Positions 31,884 to 39,666 of a DNA stretch of 64,000 nt are shown here, piece by piece (the first letter of the stretch is position 1; each line of letters starts with the position of its first letter). Below the pieces are notes generated by a model. It was not told the origin of the DNA and did not search any database. It saw only the letters and a list, made by a program, of their open reading frames with translations. The stretch comes from Candidatus Heimdallarchaeum aukensis (GTDB lineage Archaea > Asgardarchaeota > Heimdallarchaeia > Heimdallarchaeales > Heimdallarchaeaceae), in contig CP084166.1 of assembly GCA_021513695.1 (NCBI GenBank), positions 1,696,001-1,760,000 of the forward strand. Direction: 5' to 3'. Both the position numbers and the translations under genes were made by a program.

Positions 31884-32144
31884 ATGGCAATTTCTTCAGG
31901 AACAACAAACCTAAATTTAGATACGCAGAAAATTGAACTGCTAGAAAAACTACCTCCAAGCGCAAGAAGAGTTTTTAAGATCGTGAAAGAAAAAGGCCCA
32001 ATTACGAGTGCTGAAATTGTAGAAATCTGCAATTTGGCGCCACGAACTGTTAGACATGGACTTAAGCTACTTGTAAGAGCTGGCCTAATAGAGAAACTAC
32101 CTCACTTATTAGATATGAGATCAAGTAAATTTTATTGTGAATAA
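31884..32144 (+). CDS. Small winged-helix DNA-binding protein (MarR/TrmB-like)
   Basis: 86 aa, PITSAEIVEICNLAPRTVRHGLKLLVRAGLIEK HTH. Confidence 0.5.
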   Translation: MAISSGTTNLNLDTQKIELLEKLPPSARRVFKIVKEKGPITSAEIVEICNLAPRTVRHGLKLLVRAGLIEKLPHLLDMRSSKFYCE

Positions 32145-33496: not shown

Positions 33497-33560
33497 ACTT
33501 ATTGCAATATAACAAGTAAATAAGGAATAAATAAGAAAAAATGACTATAAGTTAAAATCT

Positions 33561-35858
33561 TTAAAGTTCATAATCATGGGTATGAAACATTACATCGCGG
33601 TTTACAGCTGCTTTAAACATCTGTAGAAGTAATTCATTGTCTGTTCTAATTGCTACAGGCACAGCATCTGGCACCAAAAATGCAAAGATTGCTTCGTCAA
33701 AACCATCCTTAATACCACAGAAAACATCCTTTTTATCGTATTGTCTTAATTTCAAACCTACAAATCGTTCTTTCAAGTTAATTAGAGCATTTCTAAATTT
33801 TCCAGAAGAAAAATCAGAAACAAGTGTTACTCTATTTGCTTTGGTGAACATTGCCATTTCTTCTAACAATGATTCTTCCAGATACGGTGTTATTACTAAC
33901 AACTCTCTACTAGCTCGCATACTTAAATCAGTTAAACTTGCAAGAATTGCTTCTTCCCCAACAATCACTGATACATTGTGATGTCCTCGAATGTTAATAG
34001 AATTTGCTGCTTTATCAATCTGCTTTAACTCACCCTCTCTTGTATTTATTATTTGATAATAGGCTGATGCTTTTTCTTGTAACAAAGCGAGTGTTTCCAT
34101 TATTGCTTCATCAACATCCTTGATAACAGAAGCTACTTGAGCAACAATAGTATCTATTTGTACTTCTTCTGCCTCAATTATTTTAGATGTCAGTTGTTCC
34201 TTTATTTCTTCTGTTTTTTCTTCCATAATTTTTATATCATTGTTTATATGATTCGCAATTTTGTCTTTAGTCTTTAACACTTTGCTTGAAAAGTCTTTAT
34301 CAAACATGGCCAATTTTTCTTTGAAATCTCCACCAATTTTTTTAATATCATCTTTTGTTTTATTTAACTCTGTATTCACTTCATTCTTGAAATCTATCAT
34401 TGTTTTTGAATGCTCATCATGGAACTGCTGGACATTTCCTATAATGTTCGACGAAGTGTTGTCCATACTTTCGGAAATAGTCTTGATTAAATTTGAACTA
34501 ACATCTCTACATGATTCGTAAGAAGAGGTTACATATTTCTCGACTTCATTTTGGATTTTGTTCAGAAGTTCATCAGGGAGGAGTTCTATTTTTTCAGTTG
34601 TTTCTGCTATTATTTTACTCTTTTTTGTTTTAATACTTGTTACTCCACTTAGTTGAAAATGATCAATTTTTTCACGTAGTTTATCTTTTGTTTCGTTAAT
34701 TTTTAAGACGTGTTGATCTACTATTTGGAGACCACTTTCTGAAAAATTATTAGCAAGCAACCTCATTCCATCTCTTACTTCCTGTAGTTTCTCGATTAAC
34801 GGGCTTGCTTTCTTTTTCTTCAGATCTTCTGCGAGATGTAAAGCATCAACTATAGTAGAAGAAAGTTTGTTTATGTTTCTATCAATTTGTTCTACAGATC
34901 TTCTTAGTTCTTGTGTTTGGCGAGTTTGTTCTGTTAAGATGAGATTAATATCTTGCTGCAAGGATTCAGCCAGGTTACGACTCTCCTTAATCCAAGCTTC
35001 AAAAGTATCTTCCCATATTCTTCTATATTCTTTTAGAAACTCTTGTTGTAATTCATTTGCATAGTTTAAATGTTCCTTCAAGACATTATCAAGTTCTGGT
35101 GCAAACTTATCTAAAAAATCTTTATGATTCTCCGTATGTGACTCAAGACCATTCTTTAAGATTTTAAATAATTCTGAAAAATTAGCTGAAAGCTGTTGTT
35201 CTATATTTTTTTTGTTTAATTCACTTCTTTTTTTTGCAGAATGTTCAAACTGTTTTATGAAAGCATCTAATTCTTGCAAATAAGACTCCATTCTGAGAGA
35301 TATGGCAATAGATTGGTTCTGAGCTTCTGCAATTTCTTTAGAAATCAAATTAACTGTTTCATCAAGGATATTAAATGATTCATTTTCTATTGCTTCAGTC
35401 ATTTCTACAAATTGAGAATTAACAGAATCAGTAAGTTGCTTTATTAACCCACTTACAATATGGATATCAAATATGTGCTCATCACTTGAAGTATCTAGTT
35501 TACCACCAAATTGCTTTCGTTTTTCTTTATAAGATGCTGCGTCATTCTTTAAACTATTTATTATTCCTTCAATTGCATATAATGTATCACGTTCTACTGT
35601 TATATATTGTTTCAAAAAAGGAAAAACAGCGAGATATTGTGGAGTTAAACCTTGAATTTTTTTAAGAAAACCGATCTCTTCCAGATTTCTTACTGACTGA
35701 ACTGTTGATAGAGCATCTAGTTGAGTTATAACCATGATTTCGCCTATCGTCGCTTTTCCTAAGCCAAGTATTGTTGTATATATTTTTATATCATTTTCAT
35801 TTAGACCAATTCTGGTTAATAATGGAGGTAATATGTTAACATCACTCATTTGTTTCAC
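33561..35858 (-). CDS. Large coiled-coil protein with N-terminal TrmB-type winged helix and C-terminal globular domain
   Basis: N-terminus LLTRIGLNENDIKIYTTILGLGKATIGEIMVITQLDALSTVQSVRNLEEIGFL..PQYLAVFP closely follows the TrmB wHTH pattern. ~500 aa of heptad-rich sequence. ~130 aa non-repetitive C-terminus. Confidence 0.5.
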   Translation of the reverse strand: MKQMSDVNILPPLLTRIGLNENDIKIYTTILGLGKATIGEIMVITQLDALSTVQSVRNLEEIGFLKKIQGLTPQYLAVFPFLKQYITVERDTLYAIEGIINSLKNDAASYKEKRKQFGGKLDTSSDEHIFDIHIVSGLIKQLTDSVNSQFVEMTEAIENESFNILDETVNLISKEIAEAQNQSIAISLRMESYLQELDAFIKQFEHSAKKRSELNKKNIEQQLSANFSELFKILKNGLESHTENHKDFLDKFAPELDNVLKEHLNYANELQQEFLKEYRRIWEDTFEAWIKESRNLAESLQQDINLILTEQTRQTQELRRSVEQIDRNINKLSSTIVDALHLAEDLKKKKASPLIEKLQEVRDGMRLLANNFSESGLQIVDQHVLKINETKDKLREKIDHFQLSGVTSIKTKKSKIIAETTEKIELLPDELLNKIQNEVEKYVTSSYESCRDVSSNLIKTISESMDNTSSNIIGNVQQFHDEHSKTMIDFKNEVNTELNKTKDDIKKIGGDFKEKLAMFDKDFSSKVLKTKDKIANHINNDIKIMEEKTEEIKEQLTSKIIEAEEVQIDTIVAQVASVIKDVDEAIMETLALLQEKASAYYQIINTREGELKQIDKAANSINIRGHHNVSVIVGEEAILASLTDLSMRASRELLVITPYLEESLLEEMAMFTKANRVTLVSDFSSGKFRNALINLKERFVGLKLRQYDKKDVFCGIKDGFDEAIFAFLVPDAVPVAIRTDNELLLQMFKAAVNRDVMFHTHDYEL

Positions 35859-36061
35859 TCACATATAAATTAAATTTTATTTATTCTTTTATCTCTAATG
35901 TCATATTAAGCAGTATAGATTTTAAATTTTTGTTCTCAAAAACAGAAAGCAGTTATAAAAAATACTGATTATATCTTGCCCTCTTTTAACTTACTATCAG
36001 CTATAAATATGTTATTTAGAAATACACTATAGTTATAGTAAAAAGTGGGATAAAAAGAAAA

Positions 36062-36625
36062 TTAAGCATATAGTTTCTCATAGAAAAGTACAATGTTTTT
36101 TAGCAGAGTTTTAAATGCTTCGTCCACGTTTTCACCAGTCTTTGCTGAAGTTTCAATATATGGAACTGCAAAACCTGACCAAGCTGATAACGATCTTGCA
36201 TATTCTTCTGCTTGTTCCCGTAAAATGGGGTCTTTTGCTGTGTCCCTTAAATCAGATTTATTTCCAATTAAAACAATTGGAACAACACGATTATGATTAT
36301 TTTTTAATAGTTCTGCAATCCACGCAGGTATGTTCTCAAAAGATGACCTACGAGATATATCAAAAACAAGCAGGCAACCAGATGTTCCACGATAATATAC
36401 CTCCCGTACTGCTGAAAATCTTTGTTGCCCAGCTAAATCCCATATTTGTGCTACAAAATCCTGTTGATCTATTTTCAATCTTTTTACCGCAAAATCTGCA
36501 CCTATTGTCATACTATATCCTTCTTTAAACCCCTCACCTAGGTATGTTTTTCTGAGTGATGTTTTTCCTACAGCACCGTCACCGAGTAATGTTACTTTGA
36601 AAATTTTTCGCTGTGATGAACTCAT
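36062..36625 (-). CDS. Ras/Rab-like small GTPase
   Basis: G1 GDGAVGKTS, switch II WDLAGQQRF (DxxGQ), G4 GNKSDL, G5 ETSAKTG. 187 aa. No CaaX. Confidence 0.8.
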   Translation of the reverse strand: MSSSQRKIFKVTLLGDGAVGKTSLRKTYLGEGFKEGYSMTIGADFAVKRLKIDQQDFVAQIWDLAGQQRFSAVREVYYRGTSGCLLVFDISRRSSFENIPAWIAELLKNNHNRVVPIVLIGNKSDLRDTAKDPILREQAEEYARSLSAWSGFAVPYIETSAKTGENVDEAFKTLLKNIVLFYEKLYA

Positions 36626-36835: not shown

Positions 36836-37522
36836 ATGAAAAATATGAACAAGTTAGCTAATGTCGTTCTTGAAAGACTTTTAGAACACTATGACATCAA
36901 AAAAAAGGAATTTTTGAATAATTATTCAACTCCCTTTCAGTTACTAGTTGCAGCATTATTAAGTGCTCAAAGCACTGACAAACAAGTGAACACTGTTACT
37001 AACCAACTCTTTAAAAGATATCCAGATCCCCAATCTTTTGCACAATCATCTCCAGAAGAGATAGAACAATATATTAAAAGCGTGGGACTTTACAAGACTA
37101 AAGCCCGAAATATCCATAATCTTTCTAAAGTTTTACTAAGTGAATATAACTCTTCGGTACCTAAAACAATTTCAGAACTAATAAAATTGCCAGGAATTGG
37201 AAGAAAAACAGCTAATGTTGTTTTAAATGATTGGTTTCAAATAAATGAAGGAATAGCAGTAGATACTCATGTGCAAAGAATTAGTTATCGTATAGGCTTA
37301 ACAAAGCATACCAATCCAGAAAAAATAGAAAAAGACTTGATGCTTCTTTTTCCAAAAAATAGTTGGGGTATATTGACTCGTTTATTTATTTCACATGGAA
37401 GAGAAATTTGCTTAGCTCGCAATCCAAAGTGTGATAATTGTTTTTTAAGTGATATTTGTAAAAAAAACATTATCAGAAAAAACAAATCAAGTAAAAGAGA
37501 GAAAAATAATATTACTAAATAA
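36836..37522 (+). CDS. nth: Endonuclease III (Nth) HhH-GPD DNA glycosylase with 4Fe-4S cluster
   Basis: LPGIGRKTANVVL HhH-GPD motif. C-terminal CLARNPKCDNCFLSDIC cluster ligands. Confidence 0.9.
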   Translation: MKNMNKLANVVLERLLEHYDIKKKEFLNNYSTPFQLLVAALLSAQSTDKQVNTVTNQLFKRYPDPQSFAQSSPEEIEQYIKSVGLYKTKARNIHNLSKVLLSEYNSSVPKTISELIKLPGIGRKTANVVLNDWFQINEGIAVDTHVQRISYRIGLTKHTNPEKIEKDLMLLFPKNSWGILTRLFISHGREICLARNPKCDNCFLSDICKKNIIRKNKSSKREKNNITK

Positions 37523-38273
37523 CTGTTGTATCAAAATTTGGATCTAGTTCTACGGTATCATCCTCTTTAAGTTGTACTATCTTTATTTTTTCTAATTCCT
37601 TAAGGTATTGTTTTGTTTGACTTAGAGAGATACCTAATACAAAAGATAACTGCATTTGAGAAATTGATTGTAACTGTTTTAACATACTTATTATTTTATA
37701 TCTTGGATCTGTAGAAACTAGTTTTTGTGTTATCTCCTTGACTTTATTCCACTGTTCTTTTTCTTCTTTTAGATTCTTCAATTCTTTTTCAATTTCAGAT
37801 TTTTTTACAGAAAGAGCAACTACTTGATCAGATAATTCATATATTAGTTGTTCTCGTTCTTCTAACATGCTAATAAGTCTAGAAATGTATTCTTTTTGTT
37901 CTTCGACAATGGAAATCTGTTCTTCTTGATTTTCAGTTTCTTCTTGTTTTTTGTACTTCTGTCTATCAAAATCTAATTCTTTTAACAATTTTTCTTTTTC
38001 ATCGACATCAGAAGAACTATAGAATAGTGTAATTAGTCTATAAAACTCTGATTTTATTTCGCTCAAAAGAAATTTGGTGGAACCGTCAATTTGCTCTTTA
38101 ATCATATCAACAATTGAAGTAATTTCAAAAGGAAGATCTTTACTTGTACTTGTTTGTAAAATAGGTGGATATTTTGTTAAACTCTCTTTTAAAGCTTGTA
38201 TTTCATTTGATAATTTTATAATTTCAGTAAGTATTCTCTCTTTTTCATTGTTTTTATTTTCATCTATTGTCAT
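37515..38273 (-). CDS. Coiled-coil protein with C-terminal winged helix (third gene of the Roadblock operon)
   Basis: 252 aa. Central Glu/Lys heptads. C-terminal MQLSFVLGISLSQTKQYLKELEKIKIVQL wHTH. Confidence 0.4.
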   Translation of the reverse strand: MTIDENKNNEKERILTEIIKLSNEIQALKESLTKYPPILQTSTSKDLPFEITSIVDMIKEQIDGSTKFLLSEIKSEFYRLITLFYSSSDVDEKEKLLKELDFDRQKYKKQEETENQEEQISIVEEQKEYISRLISMLEEREQLIYELSDQVVALSVKKSEIEKELKNLKEEKEQWNKVKEITQKLVSTDPRYKIISMLKQLQSISQMQLSFVLGISLSQTKQYLKELEKIKIVQLKEDDTVELDPNFDTTVI

Positions 38274-38281
38274 TTTTCACC

Positions 38282-39112
38282 CTATATCTTTGAGGTTGAT
38301 TCGATCTTGAATCCTTCTTCTTCTGATGGAGATACATCCAAAACTTCACTTATATATGCAACACCCATTAATTTACTTATAGAAAATGTATCTCTTAACC
38401 TTGAACCAATTCTATCTCTTGTAAAATAGAAAATTCCTTGAGCATAATTTAAAATAATTTGTTCTGCTACAGGATTCAGAATATTTTGAGGGAGTAAAAA
38501 AAAGTGCACTCCACCTATTTTTGAAAACATCTGAATTATCTCTTTCATAAAACTAATTAATGTGTTATGATCGTCATCCAATTGATCTTCCTTTAGCCAT
38601 AGAAGGTCATCGAAAACACTAAAACAATTCTTTTTCTGTGTTTCTTTAACATGCATAATCTTTTCTATAATACGTTTAACGTATGTTCTTCTTTTTACCT
38701 CAATTCGCCCTATTTTTAATGAAGTAGTTGTGCTGCTAGCCATATCATACATATTTTCAAAGAAAAAAGATTTGTCCTTTACACTCATTATATCCCAGTT
38801 GTATGCCGTATATGATTGTTTTACAAGCTCAAATGGTTTACTACTATGCACATAAAAAACACGGTTAAGATCAGTTTTTTGAGCCCAGTTAAGAACAATA
38901 CGTTGTACAAATAACAGAGGAATTACTGAAGATGCAGGGTAAGAAACGACAATTACAGAACCAGAAGGAATACCTTGTCTTGCAGACATCTCCATACCAA
39001 GCTTTTGATCTAAAGAACGAATTCCAGTTTTAATTAATCCTGTGGAAAGTGTAGATTCAGCGCCTACTTTACCTATTCTTTCTATATTTCCTCTTGTATT
39101 GTTGAAACTCAT
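38282..39112 (-). CDS. KaiC/RecA-superfamily (COG0467-like) protein with degenerate Walker A (predicted pseudo-ATPase)
   Basis: TGIRSLDQKLGMEMSARQGIPSGSVIVVSYPASS follows the KaiC-like TGIxxLDxxLGGGxPxGSxxLxxGxPGxGKT pattern, but GKT is replaced by SYPASS. Confidence 0.55.
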   Translation of the reverse strand: MSFNNTRGNIERIGKVGAESTLSTGLIKTGIRSLDQKLGMEMSARQGIPSGSVIVVSYPASSVIPLLFVQRIVLNWAQKTDLNRVFYVHSSKPFELVKQSYTAYNWDIMSVKDKSFFFENMYDMASSTTTSLKIGRIEVKRRTYVKRIIEKIMHVKETQKKNCFSVFDDLLWLKEDQLDDDHNTLISFMKEIIQMFSKIGGVHFFLLPQNILNPVAEQIILNYAQGIFYFTRDRIGSRLRDTFSISKLMGVAYISEVLDVSPSEEEGFKIESTSKI

Positions 39113-39138
39113 CTTCTAACCCCGCATAGAGTAATTAT

Positions 39139-39666
39139 TTAGAATTCTTCTAGTTCTTTTAGTGCGAGTTCAAGATCAGATAAATACTCTTCTTGAACAG
39201 ATTCAACTTTTGGAGTTGGTTCAGCAGTTGAAACTTGTGTTGGTGTACTAACGGGTTGTTTTGCTTCTATGGGTTTTGTTTCAACATCCAATATTGCTCT
39301 GATATTTTCAGACTGTATTTTCATAGTTCGTCTAACCAAACCTAGTTGAATGCCTGCATCTGTTATAAGACAGAGTACAGAGCTACCACAACTAGCAACT
39401 AAAATAAATCCATCTTCAAATTCTGAGATAATAATATCCAAATTTTCTAGACCAACATTTGTTCCTTGTTGTTCAGAAGCTAAATATACTGCACTTGCTA
39501 TTGCTCCTAGAGCTTCTGTTTCAAACTCATCGAAAGCAAATCTTGAAGAATATGCCAGTGTCAACCCTGTTTTATCAGCTAAAATAACATGGTTTATTAA
39601 AGGATCACTTGTAATAATTTCATGGAGAATACTGTTTATCTTATCTACACCGATAATTCTTATCAC
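39139..39666 (-). CDS. Roadblock/LC7 (MglB-like) domain protein with Pro/Thr linker and acidic C-terminal helix
   Basis: LINHVILADKTGLTLAYSS...ALGAIASAVY...FEDGFILVASCGSSVLCLITDAG Roadblock fold signature. C-terminus PVSTPTQVSTAEPTPKVESVQEEYLSDLELALKELEEF. Confidence 0.7.
   Translation of the reverse strand: MIRIIGVDKINSILHEIITSDPLINHVILADKTGLTLAYSSRFAFDEFETEALGAIASAVYLASEQQGTNVGLENLDIIISEFEDGFILVASCGSSVLCLITDAGIQLGLVRRTMKIQSENIRAILDVETKPIEAKQPVSTPTQVSTAEPTPKVESVQEEYLSDLELALKELEEF

Follow-up and report, generated by a model that had tools for sequence, protein, structure and literature searches.

Proteins of the TrmB family dimerise through the helix that follows their winged helix-turn-helix (wHTH) domain (PMC4158304, PMC4877046). 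In TrmB a beta-barrel provides six of the seven contacts to the sugar, and TrmBL2 is a chromatin protein that also acts as a repressor (PMC4158304). We analysed a gene encoding a far longer protein with TrmB-like parts in a 64,000-nucleotide stretch of the genome of Candidatus Heimdallarchaeum aukensis (GenBank assembly GCA_021513695.1, contig CP084166.1, positions 1,696,001 to 1,760,000 of the forward strand); this whole stretch is referred to as the window, and its own numbering is used for the coordinates given. The gene very probably encodes an Asgard-specific, long protein of the TrmBL2 type, with a compound head, an antiparallel hendecad (11-residue repeat) hairpin arm and a basic loop at the tip of the arm. 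The best overall explanation, to which we assign a probability of roughly 0.6, combines this architecture with an architectural role on DNA.

An uninterrupted open reading frame (ORF) occupies 33561..35858 on the minus strand, as does every part of the gene described below, and specifies 765 amino acids when counted from the GTG at 35858. A previous sequence-only reading of this DNA had placed this 765-residue frame correctly, but the public annotation and all homologues set the start three codons further in, at the ATG at 35849. As all homologues begin with a methionine that matches this ATG, in the context MS(K/D/R), the true start is probably there, and the coding sequence (33561..35849, -) most likely yields a product of 762 residues followed by the stop codon; residue numbers refer to this product unless the 765-residue ORF is named. 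Seventeen full-length homologues (762-766 residues, 46-100% identity) aligned with it from end to end and almost without gaps, at a mean column identity of 79%, and the match of 100% identity was the annotated protein of Candidatus Heimdallarchaeum aukensis. A later search added three more near-full-length homologues, giving a total of 20 (762-767 residues, 45-100% identity) that come from independent assemblies, two closed genomes among them.

The TrmB-type head

The first 77 residues (35619..35849, -) form a TrmB-type wHTH. The Pfam family TrmB (PF01978) matched residues 11-75 (14-78 of the 765-residue ORF) with 29.4-29.5 bits against a gathering score of 25.6, and was matched at E <= 0.01 by 36 of 39 divergent relatives. 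When a profile of the N-terminal 125 residues, built with 21 divergent relatives, was compared with the PDB, the best matches were TrmB (3qph, E 1.3e-10) and TrmBL2 (5bpd, E 2.6e-10), and the alignment to these two structures spanned the wHTH and continued into the next helix. The sequence that had been quoted as the reason for placing a TrmB wHTH at the N-terminus is indeed present, and that assignment holds. Conservation in the protein is highest in the wHTH, recognition helix included, where 60% of the columns are invariant.

The helix into which this alignment continues, here called the first neck helix (residues 78-123; 35481..35618, -), ends in an invariant FGG loop and would be equivalent to the dimerisation helix of TrmB and TrmBL2, by analogy with which we suggest that it dimerises here. 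A second neck helix (residues 570-615; 34005..34142, -) leads into the C-terminal domain, and the conservation of the two necks is mirrored (r 0.51 for residues 78-123 versus 570-615).

After the helical middle of the protein, an alpha/beta domain of about 125-135 residues is predicted, in agreement with the C-terminal globular domain of about 130 residues that had been proposed previously. The C-terminal 150 residues gave no sequence-level match. A model of the domain computed on 31 sequences was confident (predicted local distance difference test score, pLDDT, 83.3; predicted template modelling score, pTM, 0.69), its lower-ranked structural matches included the PLD-superfamily proteins FAM83, NucT, Nuc and Zucchini, and chains of TrmBL2 were the top Foldseek matches of the model of the full-length protein. 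In these models the domain (residues 626-762; 33564..33974, -) corresponds to the first effector subdomain of TrmB, which has an alpha/beta, PLD-like fold. The chain ends about 12 residues past the last helix of this first subdomain, and therefore the second subdomain, the beta-barrel, is missing, together with its sugar-contacting residues Asn305, Gly320, Met321, Val324, Ile325 and Glu326. PF11495, the TrmB C-terminal family, was not matched by the window protein even at E 10, and was matched by only two of the 39 relatives. The sequence-only reading had doubted that this is a simple sugar-responsive repressor, and a protein that ends after the PLD-like subdomain, without the sugar-contacting barrel, bears this out. 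A catalytic PLD role was considered and ruled out, as the HxK(x)4D motif is absent (the corresponding strand reads Y704-D-K-K-D-V-F-C); the lysine at this strand is not conserved across the family, in which only D715 and E719 are invariant or nearly so.

The helical arm and its distribution

Between these two domains, residues 124-614 (about 490) were predicted to be entirely helical, and with the necks included (residues 78-615) the helical part comes to about 540 residues. The hydrophobic periodicity of residues 124-614 showed one sharp peak, at 3.66 (11/3, a hendecad), with a power of 9.1; the maximum power in shuffled controls was 1.30 +/- 0.27, and the observed power at 3.5 was 0.04. Within the 11-residue repeat, the hydrophobic core is formed by positions a, d, e and h. 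Autocorrelation was positive at lags 4, 7, 11, 15, 18, 22, 26, 29 and 33, and again at 121 (multiples of 3.67), and at multiples of 7 it had become negative by lag 28-35. The same periodicity (3.62-3.69, and never 3.5) was found in all 38 long relatives tested, whose identities were 13-23%. A heptad coiled coil of about 500 residues had been proposed for this region: its helical nature and approximate length stand, and its heptad character does not. The arm is a hendecad-type, nearly straight helical assembly.

An AlphaFold2 (AF2) model of the full-length protein contained four long helices (residues 124-345, 350-418, 426-559 and 566-614). The first is an uninterrupted ascending helix (residues 124-345; 34815..35480, -) with hendecad periodicity and mirrored conservation. 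The descending helices (residues 350-569; 34143..34802, -) are kinked at residues 419-425, where an invariant LLP is found, and at residues 560-565. Between the ascending and descending strands the model breaks at residues 346-349 (34803..34814, -), where pLDDT falls below 50.

Several patterns of sequence evolution suggest that the arm folds back on itself at this break. Conservation per column was mirror-symmetric along the arm, with the best centre at residues 344-347 (smoothed r 0.69, 227 pairs). With the centre preset at the AF2 break, r was 0.66-0.68, a value reached by none of 3000 block shuffles at smoothing 5 or 7 and by one of 3000 in the same test without smoothing or at smoothing 11. 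Peaks and troughs of conservation matched on the two arms at residues 198/496, 216/478, 246/448 and 318/376. The rod comprises 495 residues without any insertion or deletion (indel) in 14 of the 17 orthologues, and the only indels among the orthologues, of 4 residues in two Heimdallarchaeum sequences and of 11 residues in another (P0010), are located at the tip. Because the symmetry reaches the necks, with the wHTH ending at residue 77 and the C-terminal domain starting at about residue 626, these two domains would lie side by side at the base of the arm.

A sister subfamily, sampled as 78 sequences from representative genomes and aligned to a 751-column consensus, showed the same behaviour. 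Equal paired insertions were present at the mirrored columns 171 and 510 (sum 681, centre 340.5), with 44 residues in each strand in four sequences and 40 in each strand in nine; two further sequences carried an 11+11 pair, near column 171 (17 residues inserted, 6 deleted) and at column 496. Short indels (1-4 residues) were confined to columns 339-350. The eight best antidiagonals of covariation, measured as mutual information with average product correction, were all centred on columns 339-342.5 (z 3.0-3.4), and the top pairs included 189/493, 318/361, 313/367, 324/355 and 152/532, whose sums are about 680. Mirrored conservation at the centre of this subfamily gave r 0.60, which 2 of 3000 shuffles reached.

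Each strand of the arm thus varies in length by 44, 40 or 11 residues (for example in the genes at L011 6001-8544, L019 6001-8496 and L081 1063-3387). Two of these three step sizes, 44 and 11, are whole hendecads, and the third, 40, is not. The family makes a clean example of a hendecad coiled coil with antiparallel strands that lengthen or shorten together, by 11, 40 or 44 residues at a time.

An intramolecular hairpin appears to be the simplest reading of the mirror, indel and covariation patterns, and would give an arm about half as long as the extended helix. At 0.15 nm per residue, its length would be about 33 nm for residues 124-345 and about 40 nm when counted from residue 78.

The tip of this arm is the predicted helix break and the sole indel site of the orthologues. 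It is locally basic within an otherwise acidic protein, lying in DLKKKKASPL in the window protein and in LKLGKARKQIESPL in orthologues. Basic tips that contain glycine and aromatic residues recur across many subfamilies that cannot be aligned with one another (KRGxAFKALFxGKHK, RKLFKGK, KKGFFWMGKKKK), and the centre holds Gly and Pro in most subfamilies. The loop that forms the tip has 4-15 residues in all and contains neither a CxxC motif nor a globular insert.

An exhaustive profile search returned 98 cluster representatives at E <= 0.001, many of them 646-1122 residues long and matching both the wHTH and the C-terminal domain. Two word-indexed protein searches that started from family alignments yielded, for the most part, fragments or coiled-coil proteins without a relationship to the family. 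The matches that carry a source name were all from Asgard archaea (Heimdallarchaeaceae, Kariarchaeaceae, Hodarchaeales/Hodarchaeota and Jordarchaeales, and further the Thor-, Hermod-, Sigyn-, Odin- and Lokiarchaeota/Promethearchaeota). The sister subfamily had 138 relatives in species-representative genomes, of which the best 80 were all from Asgard archaea or archaeal metagenome-assembled genomes. These results leave a strong impression that the family is restricted to Asgard archaea, although most matches carry no source name; the phyletic distribution that the sequence-only reading had wanted checked is thus Asgard for every source-named long relative, and the restriction itself is unproven. 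Family members are annotated only as 'hypothetical' or 'helix-turn-helix domain-containing', and in the literature that we searched we found no description of such long-arm TrmB proteins. A TrmB/TrmBL2 family with an arm insertion found throughout the Asgard archaea therefore seems, as judged from sequence, to be an undescribed design. What is defined here is a large, length-conserved family, with a TrmBL2-type head and a long rigid arm, in every Asgard lineage that has a named match.

One member may already have been observed as a protein. In Promethearchaeum syntrophicum, the ten best-identified proteins included a 'TrmB family transcriptional regulator', whose length-normalised abundance was low (PMC11284389). 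This is the abundance pattern expected of a long protein, and DSAG12_03376 of this organism may thus be a member of the arm family.

Possible function and competing explanations

By extension from TrmB and TrmBL2 (PMC4158304, PMC4877046), the heads would pair through their neck helices and DNA would be bound by the two wHTH domains of the pair. The rigid arms would then project away from the DNA, and their conserved basic tips would contact a second partner, possibly a protein, a membrane or a further segment of DNA. In such a mechanism the protein would space, bridge or tether chromosomal DNA as an architectural element, and would not be a metabolite-sensing switch. We propose this architectural or tethering role tentatively, by analogy, and rate its chances at somewhat short of even. 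A chromatin or cytoskeletal tether had also been suggested in the sequence-only reading, and that suggestion is likewise tentative. A bolder version, which we consider improbable, is that these proteins are an ATPase-free Asgard counterpart of SMC-type arms, serving as 35-40 nm spacers whose basic-aromatic tips anchor the chromosome, with the membrane, cytoskeletal filaments or distant DNA as the points of attachment. If this were true, the closest relatives of eukaryotes would possess a prokaryotic system for chromosome tethering or nucleoid scaffolding, in which several paralogous arm lengths would set different spacings. The organisation of Asgard chromosomes, and possible links of DNA to membrane or actin, bear on the origin of the nucleus.

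The explanation that competes best with an architectural role is that the protein is an ordinary sequence-specific transcription factor, with the arm as an oligomerisation or sensor module only. A recognition helix that belongs to the most conserved part of the protein is in keeping with a specific target on DNA, the wHTH lacks the basic character of many non-specific nucleoid proteins, and most characterised TrmB members regulate (PMC4158304). We nevertheless find this explanation unlikely, as neither an effector-binding barrel nor a conserved neighbouring target operon is present, and as the length of the arm is exact, at 495 residues without an indel between proteins of 46-49% identity, and changes in this length are compensated pairwise. 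Conserved length and pairwise compensation together suggest that the geometry of the arm is itself under selection. Because TrmBL2 combines repression with a chromatin role, regulation of transcription would in any case be compatible with an architectural function.

A quite improbable alternative to the hairpin is an intermolecular antiparallel rod of about 70-80 nm, in which two chains would run head to tail, each end would hold the wHTH of one chain and the C-terminal domain of its partner, and two DNA sites would be bridged. Mirror symmetry, paired insertions and covariation fit such a rod equally well, and in the TrmB crystal dimer the pairing of Phe81 with Ile91' and of Phe84 with Leu88' is antiparallel (PMC4158304). 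We prefer the intramolecular hairpin because the centre of symmetry coincides with the predicted, low-confidence helix break, holds Gly and Pro in most subfamilies, and tolerates indels of 1, 2 and 4 residues, which in a continuous helix would rotate the hydrophobic stripe between the two halves.

The periodicity of the arm also raises the possibility of an apolipoprotein-like lipid binder, whose 11-residue amphipathic repeats would attach to the surface of a membrane or lipid and retain the DNA-binding domain there. Sub-threshold matches to Apolipoprotein A1/A4/E were found in 30 of 39 family members (best E 1.1e-25), an 11/3 periodicity is typical of apolipoproteins, perilipins and synucleins, and several subfamilies have basic and aromatic tips. 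However, the window protein scored only 28.2-28.4 bits against this Pfam family (PF01442), and three individually re-scanned relatives 41.5-52.2 bits, relative to a gathering score of 90. The hydrophobic stripe, limited to positions a, d, e and h, is narrow, the two arms are strongly acidic (net charges of -15 and -7), and the evolutionary pairing of arm with arm suggests that helices pack against each other and not against lipid. At the centre of the polar face, lysine and glutamate occur intermixed, without the sorting seen in class A helices, which rules out lipid-binding helices of that class. The arm further yielded PADLOC matches to ZorA, which we rejected, as they fall in the ZorA tail, reflect helical periodicity only and are accompanied by no MotA-like membrane domain; they show that an 11/3 periodicity by itself is enough to yield such matches, and we attribute the apolipoprotein matches to the same cause. 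Lipid binding of this type is accordingly very doubtful.

Equally doubtful is the extended stalk, the architecture that the sequence-only reading had envisaged, with the DNA-binding head at one end of about 500 residues and the globular domain at the far end. Two chains would here run in parallel as one coiled coil about 70 nm long, the pair of wHTH domains at one end and the C-terminal domains at the other. Dimerisation of TrmB-family proteins via the helix after the wHTH (PMC4158304, PMC4877046) would suit this arrangement, as would a continuously helical region with a coherent hydrophobic stripe. However, a parallel stalk predicts no mirrored conservation, no equal paired insertions and no antidiagonal covariation, and would not tolerate indels of 1-4 residues at its centre; these observations indicate instead an arm that folds back, to about half the length.

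Lastly, the chance that an assembly or annotation artefact has joined two genes is negligible, as nothing was found in its favour, the 20 near-full-length homologues from independent assemblies align end to end, excluding the fusion artefact that the sequence-only reading had raised against itself, and the same three-part design recurs in dozens of divergent relatives.

Some observations weigh against the preferred reading, that of a hairpin-armed TrmBL2-type protein with an architectural role on DNA. The AF2 model of the full-length protein is of low confidence (pLDDT 58.9, pTM 0.27), and so the proposed helix packing draws on evolutionary patterns only. Within the protein's own subfamily of 17 sequences covariation was weak (z 2.6), although its best antidiagonal was centred on residue 347. 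It is only the non-helical, indel-tolerant tip that favours a hairpin over an intermolecular antiparallel dimer. As for DNA binding, Tyr50 of the recognition helix is, together with Asp51, important in TrmB, TrmBL1 and TrmBL2 (PMC4158304), and in the profile alignment to 3qph the window protein has Val50 and Gln51 at these two positions, so that the tyrosine appears to be replaced by valine. This does not rule out membership of the TrmB family, because MreA, an accepted member, also lacks the tyrosine (PMC4158304). The net charge is -1 for the wHTH and -28 for the whole protein, and the very high conservation of the wHTH would equally suit a sequence-specific regulator. Finally, none of the gene neighbours recurs throughout the family in support of a particular function.

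Gene context and comparison with known systems

The gene appears to stand alone, with an AT-rich upstream region of its own, a T-rich tail and a convergent gene next downstream. A TATA-like, AT-rich element read from the sequence (TTTAATTTATAT; 35863..35874, -), about 14-25 nt upstream of the ATG, is a possible promoter for a leaderless or short-leader transcript, and a T-rich stretch just past the stop codon (33511..33545, -) is a possible archaeal terminator; both are weak evidence, the promoter element lying in a genome of about 31% G+C.

Upstream in the window is a three-gene cluster (37515..39666, -) that consists of a Roadblock/LC7 gene (39139..39666, -), a KaiC/RecA-like ATPase gene (38282..39112, -), for which PF06745 was matched in orthologues only, and a gene for a 252-residue coiled-coil protein with a C-terminal wHTH (37515..38273, -) that weakly matched HTH_24 and Sul12a. 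The same cluster was seen at L001 4014-6226, L003 3565-5738 and L004 15724-17847, in Heimdallarchaeaceae and in a distant lineage, and the trio has the look of a functional module. A Ras/Rab-like small GTPase gene (36062..36625, -; Pfam Ras, E 1.7e-49) shares the strand of the TrmB-arm gene and is its direct upstream neighbour. The Roadblock, ATPase, coiled-coil wHTH and GTPase genes are syntenic in Heimdallarchaeaceae, together with an endonuclease III gene, and the trio and a GTPase gene reappear near a relative of 21% identity at one distant locus; this gene order was absent around family genes of four other lineages. Since the family as a whole has no conserved partner gene, the gene context offers no clue to function.

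Ras/Arf GTPase genes lie within 6 kb (<=6 kb) of a family gene at L001, L003, L004 and L009, and not at L006, L007, L008 or L010. Since small GTPases are very common in Asgard genomes, this proximity means little and is probably a coincidence. A small stand-alone wHTH protein of 81-86 residues, HTH_20/ArsR-like, is encoded at 31884..32144 (+) in the window and at L001 10438-10683 (-) and L003 10349-10594 (-). In other Heimdallarchaeaceae its gene is immediately downstream of the TrmB-arm gene and convergent to it; in the window a YchF-type GTPase gene intervenes.

Neighbours in the sister subfamily were counted at 80 loci (L011-L090). Two divergent neighbours recur on the opposite strand, about 0.4 kb and 1.3 kb upstream of the family gene. 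One, found at 56 of the 80 loci, encodes a 227-residue protein that has a signal peptide and is anchored in the membrane at its C-terminus. The protein encoded by the other, found at 49 of the 80, has 400 residues and spans the membrane once; its N-terminal part is extracytoplasmic, and two HVO_0163-like wHTH domains lie in the cytoplasm. These two membrane proteins and Fae-Hps were considered as functional clues and set aside, as their conservation looks like lineage synteny.

Among known systems, the SMC, Rad50 and MukB proteins offer a likeness in the arm. In them, as is proposed here from sequence patterns, an antiparallel intramolecular coiled coil joins the N- and C-terminal parts of the chain as a head, and the length of the arm is conserved and altered by matched insertions in both strands. 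An SMC arm is roughly 50 nm long, compared with about 35-40 nm here. The repeat in the window protein is a hendecad and not a heptad, its tip has no hinge domain or zinc hook, and Pfam and NCBIfam scans of the window protein gave no match to an ABC ATPase, P-loop or SMC_N head (split Walker A, Walker B, signature). The window protein is not a member of the SMC/Rad50 family. The sequence-only reading had spoken of an SMC-like architecture, and a folded-back arm in fact comes nearer to SMC and Rad50 than the stalk it had drawn, but the ATPase head, the hinge and the heptad are missing.

The exchangeable apolipoproteins (ApoA-I, ApoA-IV and ApoE; apolipophorin III) are alike in their 11-residue periodic amphipathic helices and in the sub-threshold Pfam match. 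The window protein differs in that it lacks the charge sorting of class A helices, is cytoplasmic, starts with a DNA-binding domain and has helices that appear to be paired.

Sso10a proteins are small, at about 95 residues, and their coiled coil forms between two chains. These chromatin proteins of the Sulfolobales, for which an architectural role on DNA has been proposed, likewise combine a winged helix with an antiparallel coiled coil (PMC4941522). No sequence relationship to Sso10a was detected, and it was absent among the PDB matches of the N-terminal profile.

The sugar regulators TrmB, TrmBL1 and Tgr (PDB 3qph, 2f5t) possess the beta-barrel of the second effector subdomain that the window protein lacks. 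TrmBL2 (Thermococcus kodakarensis TK0471 and Pyrococcus furiosus PF0496; PDB 5bpd, 5bpi and 5bqt) has the same parts in the same order (PMC4877046), with an amphipathic helix between a wHTH and a PLD-like domain and no sugar-binding subdomain, at an identity of only about 15-17%. Chromatin proteins of the TrmBL2 type coat DNA non-specifically, form tetramers and stiff filaments, and reach a high abundance in the cell. TrmBL2 is a tetrameric, filament-forming nucleoid protein of the Thermococcales, to which the window protein, known here from its sequence, is likened by the order of its parts. TrmBL2 has 264 residues and a dimerisation helix of about 30, and the window protein has a long arm of about 540 helical residues.

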